IMG/VR virus record: IMGVR_UViG_3300037422_000298
Length of the DNA: 64,000 nt
Direction: 5' to 3' (one strand)
DNA from: a virus
Lineage: Duplodnaviria; Caudoviricetes
The translations under genes and the position numbers were made by a program. The notes under the pieces are model-generated. The model was not told where the DNA came from, did not search any database, and was given only the letters and a program-made list of their open reading frames with translations. This document shows positions 21,120 to 21,517 of this stretch, piece after piece (the first letter of the stretch is position 1; the number at the start of each line of letters is the position of its first letter).

Positions 21120-21242
21120 GAAGTCGTCATCCAGAGGTGCTCACACGCATAGCTCAATCGAAGAGCGTCGCCCTGATAAGGCGAAGGTTGCGGTCTCATA
21201 AACCGCTGCATTCAACACCCAGCATCTCACCTCGACGGCTTC
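21120..21242 (+). ncRNA. RNA D: tRNA-Ile(GAT)-like body on an extended interrupted stem
   Basis: GAAGTCGTC/GACGGCTTC and GAGGTGCT/AGCATCTC stems enclose a D arm, TCGCC-CTGATAA-GGCGA and a T-position arm with CTCATAA loop. Confidence 0.7.
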
Positions 21243-21309
21243 TACCTACGCTCTCCGAAGAACGCGACGCAGCCTCGTGCCGCCTAGCGGTCGTAAAGAG
21301 GGCACCTAT

Positions 21310-21383
21310 AGCGGGGTGGAGCAGCCTGGTAGCTCGTTGGGCTCATAACCCAAAGGTCGGTGGTTCAAATCCACTCCCCGCAA
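21310..21383 (+). tRNA. tRNA-fMet (CAT), initiator type
   Basis: Unpaired 1:72, GGG/CCC anticodon-stem pairs, CTCATAA loop, TTCAAAT T loop. Confidence 0.9.
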
Positions 21384-21386
21384 CTA

Positions 21387-21517
21387 GAAGCCGTCATCAC
21401 GAAGCGCTCACACGCATTGACCAACGGTAGGTCATCAGTCTCGTAAACTGACGGTTGCAGGTTCAAGTCCTGCTGCACCTCGCAAGAGGATCTCCAGCGT
21501 TTCACCTCGACGGCTTC
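21387..21517 (+). ncRNA. RNA E: tRNA-Thr(CGT)-like body on an extended interrupted stem
   Basis: GAAGCCGTC/GACGGCTTC and GAAGCGCT/AGCGTTTC stems enclose a D arm, TCAGT-CTCGTAA-ACTGA, GCAGG-TTCAAGT-CCTGC and an extra GCAA hairpin. Confidence 0.75.

Follow-up and report, generated by a model that had tools for sequence, protein, structure and literature searches.

Two RNA elements, D (21120-21242) and E (21387-21517), both on the plus strand, were studied in a stretch of 64,000 nucleotides of viral DNA (Duplodnaviria; Caudoviricetes; IMG/VR record IMGVR_UViG_3300037422_000298), which is called the window throughout. In both, a tRNA-like body is enclosed by a long two-part stem, the handle, and comparison of their relatives places D and E in a large family of non-coding small RNAs, in which conservation lies in this scaffold and not in the tRNA body. 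The reading to which we lean, with modest confidence, is that D and E are non-chargeable, Y-RNA-like tRNA mimics which would be bound through the handle by a Ro60-like protein or by its gene cassette. The window has a G+C content of approx. 61%, and it is taken for a piece of a jumbo phage because its proteins are met again on contigs (200-600 kb) from uncultured phages.

A common architecture was predicted for D and E by RNAfold (z-scores -4.3 and -4.2, respectively): a 9-bp stem 1, a 5x5 internal loop, an 8-bp stem 2, the sequence CACAC, a 3-bp G-C-A/U-G-C helix, a cloverleaf and an A/C-rich 3' linker. In D, stem 1 is formed by 21120-21128 and 21234-21242, the internal loop by AUCCA (21129-21133) and ACCUC (21229-21233), and stem 2 by 21134-21141 and 21221-21228; these are followed inside by CACAC (21142-21146) and by a mini-acceptor in which GCA (21147-21149) pairs with UGC (21207-21209), the 3' linker occupying 21210-21220. 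The corresponding parts of E are stem 1 at 21387-21395/21509-21517, the loop AUCAC//ACCUC, stem 2 at 21401-21408/21496-21503, CACAC at 21409-21413 and the mini-acceptor GCA (21414-21416)/UGC (21474-21476), and its 3' linker carries an extra GCAA-capped hairpin (21478-21489). The pattern GAAGYCGTCATC-N10-16-CACACGCA was found twice in the window, at 21120 and 21387, and in none of 100 shuffles. The 15-nt 3' end CACCTCGACGGCTTC is identical in the two elements and is located exactly at 21228 and 21503. The first-pass annotation of this DNA had described two tRNA bodies on a long shared stem, with compensated differences between the two copies; the frame could be placed exactly, and the compensated differences are seen in stem 2, where GAGGTGCT/AGCATCTC in one element stands against GAAGCGCT/AGCGTTTC in the other.

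The cores had been assigned to Ile(GAT) and Thr(CGT), and both anticodons are confirmed. The anticodon GAT lies at 21175-21177 in D and CGT at 21442-21444 in E, and the Rfam tRNA model RF00005 matched both cores above its gathering score of 29 (cmscan; 41.8 bits for D, 46.7 bits for E), as expected of a cloverleaf, while ARAGORN reported E alone and not D. In the cmscan alignment of D three of the seven acceptor pairs were flagged as non-canonical, and the match of E spans model positions 5-66 only, positions 1-4 and 67-71 being outside the match. The 7-bp acceptor stem and the NCCA end of a tRNA are thus missing, as had been noticed before: only the G-C-A/U-G-C pairs are left, no CCA follows them, and the ends run into the 17-bp helix. 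Since no acceptor end is available, the ends are locked in 17 bp and the linkers are unable to pair, we infer from the structure that D and E would be neither charged nor used in decoding. Linker-linker pairing, an alternative acceptor register via stem 2, splicing motifs of the bulge-helix-bulge type, a retron-like a1/a2 stem and an inverted repeat at the DNA level were all rejected, because the linkers are nearly free of G and U, stem 2 covaries as drawn and the G-U pairs of the stems cannot pair on the other strand.

The two cores differ in their elbows. In E the D and T loops are canonical, and the elbow nucleotides are retained (AACGGUA and UUCAAGU). In D both partner loops are altered, to AAUCGAA and to CUCAUAA, the latter being a non-canonical T loop (21195-21201). 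This T loop is canonical in the more distant D orthologues, which retain UUCAAWU, and degenerate in the subclade of the window. It was also observed that the D-arm loop of element D (21156-21162) is without G18-G19, that both elbow partners changed together in the window's subclade (the window and loci L023, L027 and L029), and that CUCAUAA has the same letters as the anticodon loop of the nearby CAT RNAs.

Relatives were collected using a covariance model, R1, built from seven copies. It scored 133.5 bits with D and 125.4 bits with E and detected every orthologue (76-133 bits); the contigs which carry homologues of the 143-aa open reading frame (ORF) 3' of the window's RNA operon bear the same operon. 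A first DNA-pattern scan of viral contigs had yielded one true relative, L004, together with three chance matches in low-GC coding DNA (L001-L003). About 70 distinct elements were found in related jumbo-phage contigs and further ones in Myxococcota genomes, and the alignment used below consists of 71 distinct sequences, including two ordinary tRNAs and one row cut at its 3' end. Compensatory changes were present at 9/9 pairs of stem 1 and at 8/8 pairs of stem 2, so that the shared stem is covarying as well as conserved. The paired cells amounted to 97% in stem 1 and 95% in stem 2, values reached by 0 of 500 shuffles, and fell to 29-48% when one strand was slid by a few columns as a control.

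The handle also has a sequence signature. An A opens the 5' loop in 65 of the 71 rows, the 3' loop ends in CUC in 67, and in 67 NACAMG(C) stands right after stem 2, while the inner pair of stem 1, a C-G, is invariant in the scaffold. Within the orthologues of D and E the shape of the scaffold is nearly invariant, and stem 2 covaries there. The short form with the CACAC-GCR mini-acceptor and the CAACAC-type linker, as in D and E, recurs in the Myxococcota copies. Since this form is shared with bacterial chromosomes, it is regarded as an old and maintained design and not as a product of decay. Neither Rfam 15 nor the literature that could be searched yielded a description of the handle.

The cargo inside the handle is variable. 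The acceptor helix measures from 0 to 7 bp across the family and closes with G1-C72 and C2-G71, followed by A73; in D, E and all of their orthologues it has only 2-4 pairs. Given this span, D and E represent the short form of a continuum, in which the helix is shortened on both strands together. Two E orthologues (L022, 1100-1211 and L023, 1857-1962) have lost the D arm, have the anticodon loops CUAAACA and CUCGACA, and keep both the handle and a canonical T arm. In L073 (16540-16616), in L035 (17489-17592) and in unit A of the window there is no tRNA body at all.

Unit A (20721-20815, plus strand) has a fold z-score of -4.8 and all three handle signatures. It consists of stem 1 CUGGUUACC/GGUGACCAG, the loop ACCA//ACUC, a 10-bp stem 2 GCGUCGUGCU/AGCACGACGC and UACAAGC, and its cargo is not a tRNA; stem 2 covaries among the orthologues, as in GAGCAUCCU/AGGACGCUC of L022 and L023. 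Two further units on the same strand were identified by fold and orthologue alignment, in the case of B also by sequence: unit B (20821-20949), which is tRNA-like with the anticodon CAT, and unit C (20980-21119), tRNA-like with ACG. Both have perfect 7-bp acceptor stems, and the inserts of 55-70 nt in their variable regions are circularly permuted handles. In B the order is S2b, N-CUC, a capped S1 hairpin, the A-loop, S2a and UACAAGC; in C the permuted handle ends in UUUACAAGC, just before the T arm. The S1 hairpin and S2 of the permuted handle covary across the orthologues of B and C. One operon therefore presents three topologies, namely the handle alone, the handle within a tRNA and tRNA bodies within the handle. 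The permuted form inside the variable regions means that the handle behaves as a transferable module, and the three kinds of graft are hard to explain by a processing signal and easy to explain by a ligand-binding module.

This bears on the possibility that D and E are unusual tRNA precursors, in which the leader-trailer helix is a processing platform (e.g. for RNase III or a phage nuclease) and which are matured to tRNA-Ile and tRNA-Thr. The cores of both elements do score as tRNA, E and most members keep the canonical form of the D and T loops and an anticodon loop of 7 nt, some 7-bp acceptor stems start directly after ACAM and so resemble a tRNA whose leader ends before G1, and the elements sit in tRNA operons, 3-4 nt past the preceding tRNA. 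However, the few acceptor pairs of D, E and their orthologues come with no sequence means of rebuilding the four missing ones, and the ordinary tRNAs of the window (Met, five Leu and two Ser) do without the handle. Members with the handle only and members without the D arm exist, D lacks both G18-G19 and the T-loop consensus, and the bacterial copies adjoin the Ro60-like gene described below without a tRNA array. We consider the maturation of D and E to working tRNAs very unlikely.

The anticodon of the cargo changes freely. The first-pass annotation had proposed a homologue search for further anticodon variants, and such variants were found: D orthologues carry TAT in most cases, GAT in the window, L023 and L029, GAC in L004 and ATT in L006, and those with differing triplets share the same anticodon stem. 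Family-wide the anticodons are extremely diverse, and A34, C33 and anticodon loops of 6 and 8 nt are frequent. Triplets that vary between a fixed anticodon stem, C32 and A37-A38 resemble diversifying change at a bait, as would be expected if the RNAs were free-standing decoys or sponges for tRNA-targeting host factors (anticodon nucleases, tRNA-modifying toxins, or systems of the Septu/PARIS type). Phage tRNAs are known to counter anticodon nucleases, PARIS and retron effectors (PMC10264068, PMC11464382, PMC11555353). The decoy explanation, however, leaves the invariant loop nucleotides and the ACAMGC motif unaccounted for, as well as the handle-only members, which have no anticodon arm, and the tight linkage to the Ro60-like gene on bacterial chromosomes. 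As a free-standing function it seems unlikely to us, although it is compatible with the Y-RNA-like reading if the bait acts within a particle.

Because bacterial Y RNAs are known tRNA mimics with paired ends (PMC4201824), a Ro60-type gene was sought nearby. The candidate partner is a 648-aa protein (9291-11237, plus strand) with a predicted N-terminal helical-repeat domain and a C-terminal von Willebrand factor A (vWA) domain, as judged from Pfam (VWA_2), Foldseek and the ESM Atlas. Pfam matched VWA_2 and VWA_CoxE only, with the vWA domain at residues 440-522, and phmmer gave no sequence-level match to Ro60. An AlphaFold model was obtained from 26 homologues, with a predicted local distance difference test (pLDDT) of 75. 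When the full-length model was searched with Foldseek, Ro60/TROVE chains were the top 11 matches, with 504-567 aligned columns and TM-scores of only 0.2-0.3, and matches to vWA alone aligned over about 200 columns. The N-terminal 435 residues were compared with 48,161 representative chains, and the first three were phiLo Ro60 (Z 8.8), Deinococcus radiodurans Rsr (8.6) and Xenopus Ro (6.6), the next one being at 5.9; 244, 255 and 304 residues were aligned in these three, at a root-mean-square deviation (rmsd) of 12-15 A. Foldseek with the N-terminal domain alone was weak (TROVE entry 9kop at rank 3, E 0.047), and VIA-align re-ranking of the full-length model returned vWA domains only, with Z 14 for the vWA domain. 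Among the 30 nearest named clusters of the ESM Atlas 17 were TROVE families (TROVE/vWA_Ro60), at 0.91. The predicted model has a beta-rich insert at residues 34-112, and the protein shows strong conservation, with an identity of 64-96% in the best 120 of more than 1,700 matches. Since the sequence methods fail and the rmsd is large, the protein is called Ro60-like here and not a Ro60 orthologue.

The linkage of the RNAs to this gene was followed in phages and in bacteria. Using the 648-aa protein, 59 phage loci were fetched and scanned with R1. Full-length elements were present in 40 distinct loci; they always share the strand of the protein gene and lie either 0.14-6.5 kb upstream (median 1.2 kb) or 2.5-9.9 kb downstream (median 4.3 kb). 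In five phage genomes of 377-619 kb (92-100% complete) 7 of 8 elements lie at most 10 kb downstream of the gene, and in the 221-kb genome L004 the sole element lies 12.6 kb downstream. The Ro60-like gene was also found in 21 bacterial contigs, mostly from Myxococcota, including a contig of 1.03 Mb and a 799-kb scaffold of a Paraliomyxa miuraensis isolate, and elements are present in 13 of these loci, within the span of 0.14-10 kb from the gene that also holds for the phage loci. One of these chromosomal copies is that of the cultured P. miuraensis isolate, strain SMH-27-4 (L104, 14146-14265). In L098 (9178-9841), L099 (9231-9843) and L102 (9622-9889) two or three tandem elements precede the gene at a distance of no more than approx. 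0.8 kb, and in the 10-kb flanks of these three loci no ordinary tRNA was matched at E <= 0.01. When five whole bacterial genomes (10-15 Mb) were searched, with 150 first-look candidates scored per genome, 9 of the 12 matches had the gene at a distance of about 2.5 kb or less.

Downstream of the Ro60-like gene, on its strand, come a gene for a 316-aa protein of unknown family (11670-12620), a weak match to the JAB domain (13887-14300), a further small ORF (14362-14742) and, at 16346-16954, a ThiF/E1 gene; a radical-SAM gene also sits between the Ro60-like gene and the RNA operon. In Thermus, archaea and eukaryotes, tRNA thiolation draws its sulfur from ubiquitin-like proteins paired with E1 enzymes. 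With the JAB match, the ThiF/E1 and the radical-SAM genes all lying between the Ro60-like gene and the RNAs, D and E might be substrates or scaffolds of this ubiquitin-like/E1/JAB cassette and not of the Ro60-like protein itself, for example in a TtuB/TtuC- or Urm1-like sulfur-carrier pathway which modifies tRNA-shaped RNAs. No tRNA thiolase of the TtuA/Ncs6 type was found among the approximately 35 ORFs scanned, a minority of those in the window, and D is without the normal T loop, the site of s2T54; we regard this role as quite unlikely. Both this explanation and that of decoys overlap with the favoured one. Unlikely too, though slightly less so, is a bolder version, in which the handle is a portable tag that recruits the Ro60-shaped vWA protein together with the ubiquitin-like/E1/JAB cassette onto tRNA-shaped RNAs. 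If it were true, giant phages and myxobacteria would own an RNA-scaffolded machine for tagging, thiolating or quality-controlling tRNAs or tRNA-binding proteins, and the different graft topologies would yield chargeable and non-chargeable versions of one particle. Among ten further large ORFs of the window no RNA-repair enzymes were found.

The reading of D and E as Y-RNA-like mimics has to be judged against the known systems. In the Yrn1 RNA of D. radiodurans an anticodon-like arm lies between the D-like and the T arm (PMC4201824), and in our reading of that work the terminal stem takes the acceptor position, as in D and E. According to the same source bacterial and phage Y RNAs have tRNA-like modules, their genes lie beside Ro60 genes and the length of their 'acceptor' varies. 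The likeness to Yrn1 and to the other Ro60-bound Y RNAs consists in the ends paired as stem-bulge-stem (in D and E by fold, with all 17 pairs covarying), the tRNA-imitating remainder and the variable 'acceptor'; the linked gene, of Ro60 type for these Y RNAs, is Ro60-like by predicted fold for D and E. Unlike in these RNAs, CGAA or GNCGAA(N)G is not conserved in the present family, whose signature is A...CUC and NACAMGC, and D and E retain a full anticodon arm (5 bp, 7 nt) and a variable loop; furthermore, their candidate partner is missed by the TROVE model of Pfam. YrlA (RF02553; Salmonella, mycobacteria and mycobacteriophages) likewise has D and T arms in a tRNA-like module, is encoded next to a Ro60 gene and is also known from phages, and it is mostly uncut by RNase P because its acceptor-like stem is short. 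YrlA is permuted, however (T arm, acceptor-like stem-loop, D arm), and its Ro60-binding stem stands in place of the anticodon arm, whereas D and E have the normal tRNA order and the stem in place of the acceptor end. The first-pass annotation had already pointed to this difference, in agreement with Chen et al. 2014 (PMC4201824), where the YrlA stem is attached at the anticodon side.

Precedents exist in phages, too. Iyer et al. 2021 noted the presence of a TROVE protein in some jumbo phages; in cellular organisms such a protein is partnered by a tRNA-like RNA (PMC7824862). The Ro60 of Thermus phage phiLo binds stem-bulge-stem RNAs, Yrl1 and Yrl2, which are encoded adjacent to its gene (PMC12135203; PDB 9KOP, 9L5Y), and thus combines, as the window may do, a phage Ro60-type ring protein with adjacent stem-bulge-stem RNAs; it is also the best structural match to the N-terminal domain of the window protein, with an identity of 17% over the aligned residues. 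The differences are that Yrl1 and Yrl2 have CGAA and, by description, no tRNA body, and that phiLo Ro60 is recognisable as TROVE. Ordinary phage tRNAs, among them those directed against anticodon nucleases (PMC10264068), are similar to D and E in having cloverleaf cores in a phage tRNA operon and anticodon loops that change between relatives; D and E differ from them in having no usable acceptor stem or free 3' end, their ends being locked in the conserved bipartite helix. As we read these comparisons, Yrn1 is closest in topology and YrlA in tRNA mimicry and phage occurrence, and among phages phiLo Ro60 with its Yrl RNAs comes nearest as a precedent.

Several observations weigh against the Y-RNA-like reading. 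With regard to the protein, no TROVE match was obtained from Pfam, and a sequence profile run against the PDB sequences returned vWA proteins only and no Ro60. For a helical-repeat protein a Z of about 8.7 at an rmsd of about 12 A is a modest value, so that the likeness to Ro60 is one of predicted fold and of language-model similarity only. Since the Ro60-like gene heads the ubiquitin-like/E1/JAB cassette, a different protein of the set could be the true partner. With regard to the linkage, the gene lies 9.9 kb from D in the window, farther than in most relatives, and many of the phage loci are related by descent, so that the counts of linked loci are not counts of independent events. With regard to the RNAs, the CGAA motif (GNCGAAN0-1G) is present in E, as A-CGAA-G where the loop meets stem 2, is absent from D and occurs in 6 of the 71 members, and the Rfam models of Y_RNA, YrlA and YrlB had no match at E <= 10 in 20500-21700. 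Members with a full 7-bp acceptor and a normal anticodon loop exist (e.g. L078, 9674-9805), and, to judge by their sequence, these could be processed into working tRNAs. Six public RNA rows shared only 0.04 of the sampled words with the region; in the four runs compared in detail coverage was confined to 21299-21414 and corresponds to tRNA-Met of other organisms, which is uninformative for D and E.

In the mechanism which we propose, the RNAs would be transcribed from an upstream promoter and would remain about 120-130 nt long. The handle, that is the 9-bp helix, the A.../...CUC loop, the helix of about 8 bp and NACAMGC, closes both ends of the tRNA-shaped cargo and would most likely serve as the binding site for the Ro60-shaped vWA protein or its cassette, in the way in which the stem-bulge-stem of Y RNAs sits on Ro60; bacterial Y RNAs (PMC4201824) and phiLo Ro60 with Yrl1 and Yrl2 (PMC12135203) are the precedents. 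The tRNA-like cargo may then be the effector or bait module. D and E display the anticodon arm, and E also an intact elbow, and they offer no acceptor end to RNase P, the CCA-adding enzyme or a synthetase.

The structured RNAs of the window are packed between a TTGACA-17-TAGGGT box (20685-20713) and an ORF starting at 21540. The box was read from the sequence as the putative plus-strand promoter of the RNA operon, with TTGACA at 20685-20690, a 17-nt spacer and TAGGGT at 20708-20713. The TAGGGT box aligns in 10 of the 11 upstream regions compared, and TTGACA is present in 7 loci; from this conservation we infer a promoter, with a probable transcription start near G20721. In 20500-22100 a consensus scanner for promoters and terminators made no call of either kind, the putative promoter being missed because TAGGGT agrees with TATAAT at only 3 of 6 positions. 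When the phage GenBank records were searched with blastn in distant mode, an ordinary tRNA-Met alone was matched in 20600-21600. It is the canonical tRNA-Met(CAT) at 21310-21384 (plus strand; ARAGORN, Rfam 59.8 bits), which lies between D and E and has no handle.

Between D and this tRNA there is a hairpin-like segment of about 55 nt (21250-21305) with AAG(A/C)GCGAC and CUAGC motifs and complementary ends. The segment is conserved in L004, L006, L010, L011, L022 and L023 and may be a small RNA or a processing element. In L022 the insert between D and the tRNA-Met (880-960) holds CCGCCAGGCCCGGAAGGGAGCAACGGUAA, which resembles the conserved domain IV of signal recognition particle (4.5S) RNA; this insert could be a phage-borne element of that type. 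Elsewhere in the window, at 29263-30367 and 33662-33838, five tRNA-Leu isoacceptors (TAA, GAG, CAG, TAG and CAA, which is the complete set) and two tRNA-Ser were found, with the handle on none of them.

Directly 3' of the RNA operon lies the Arg-rich ORF of 143 aa (21540-21971), which belongs to no known family and is not separated from E by a terminator. It has 23 homologues and follows the RNA operon in every relative from which upstream DNA was recovered. Its product could be a subclade-specific RNA-binding protein; as a general partner of the family it was dropped, since the 23 relatives all belong to the window's subclade. The ORFs flanking the operon (19700-20688 and 21540-22340) matched no family in Pfam, PHROGs or NCBIfam.

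As a practical consequence, annotation should be made with caution, since ARAGORN and the Rfam tRNA model list some of the handle elements as ordinary tRNA genes. Particles of Ro60 and Y RNA are conserved from bacteria to humans. The present family mounts a candidate protein-binding stem at the acceptor end and not at the anticodon end, and it retains a complete, fast-changing anticodon arm. Its members would form a natural series of chargeable and non-chargeable mimics, which may serve as a probe of what the tRNA-like module recognises, and the family would connect such particles with a ubiquitin-like cassette of giant phages that is as yet unstudied.

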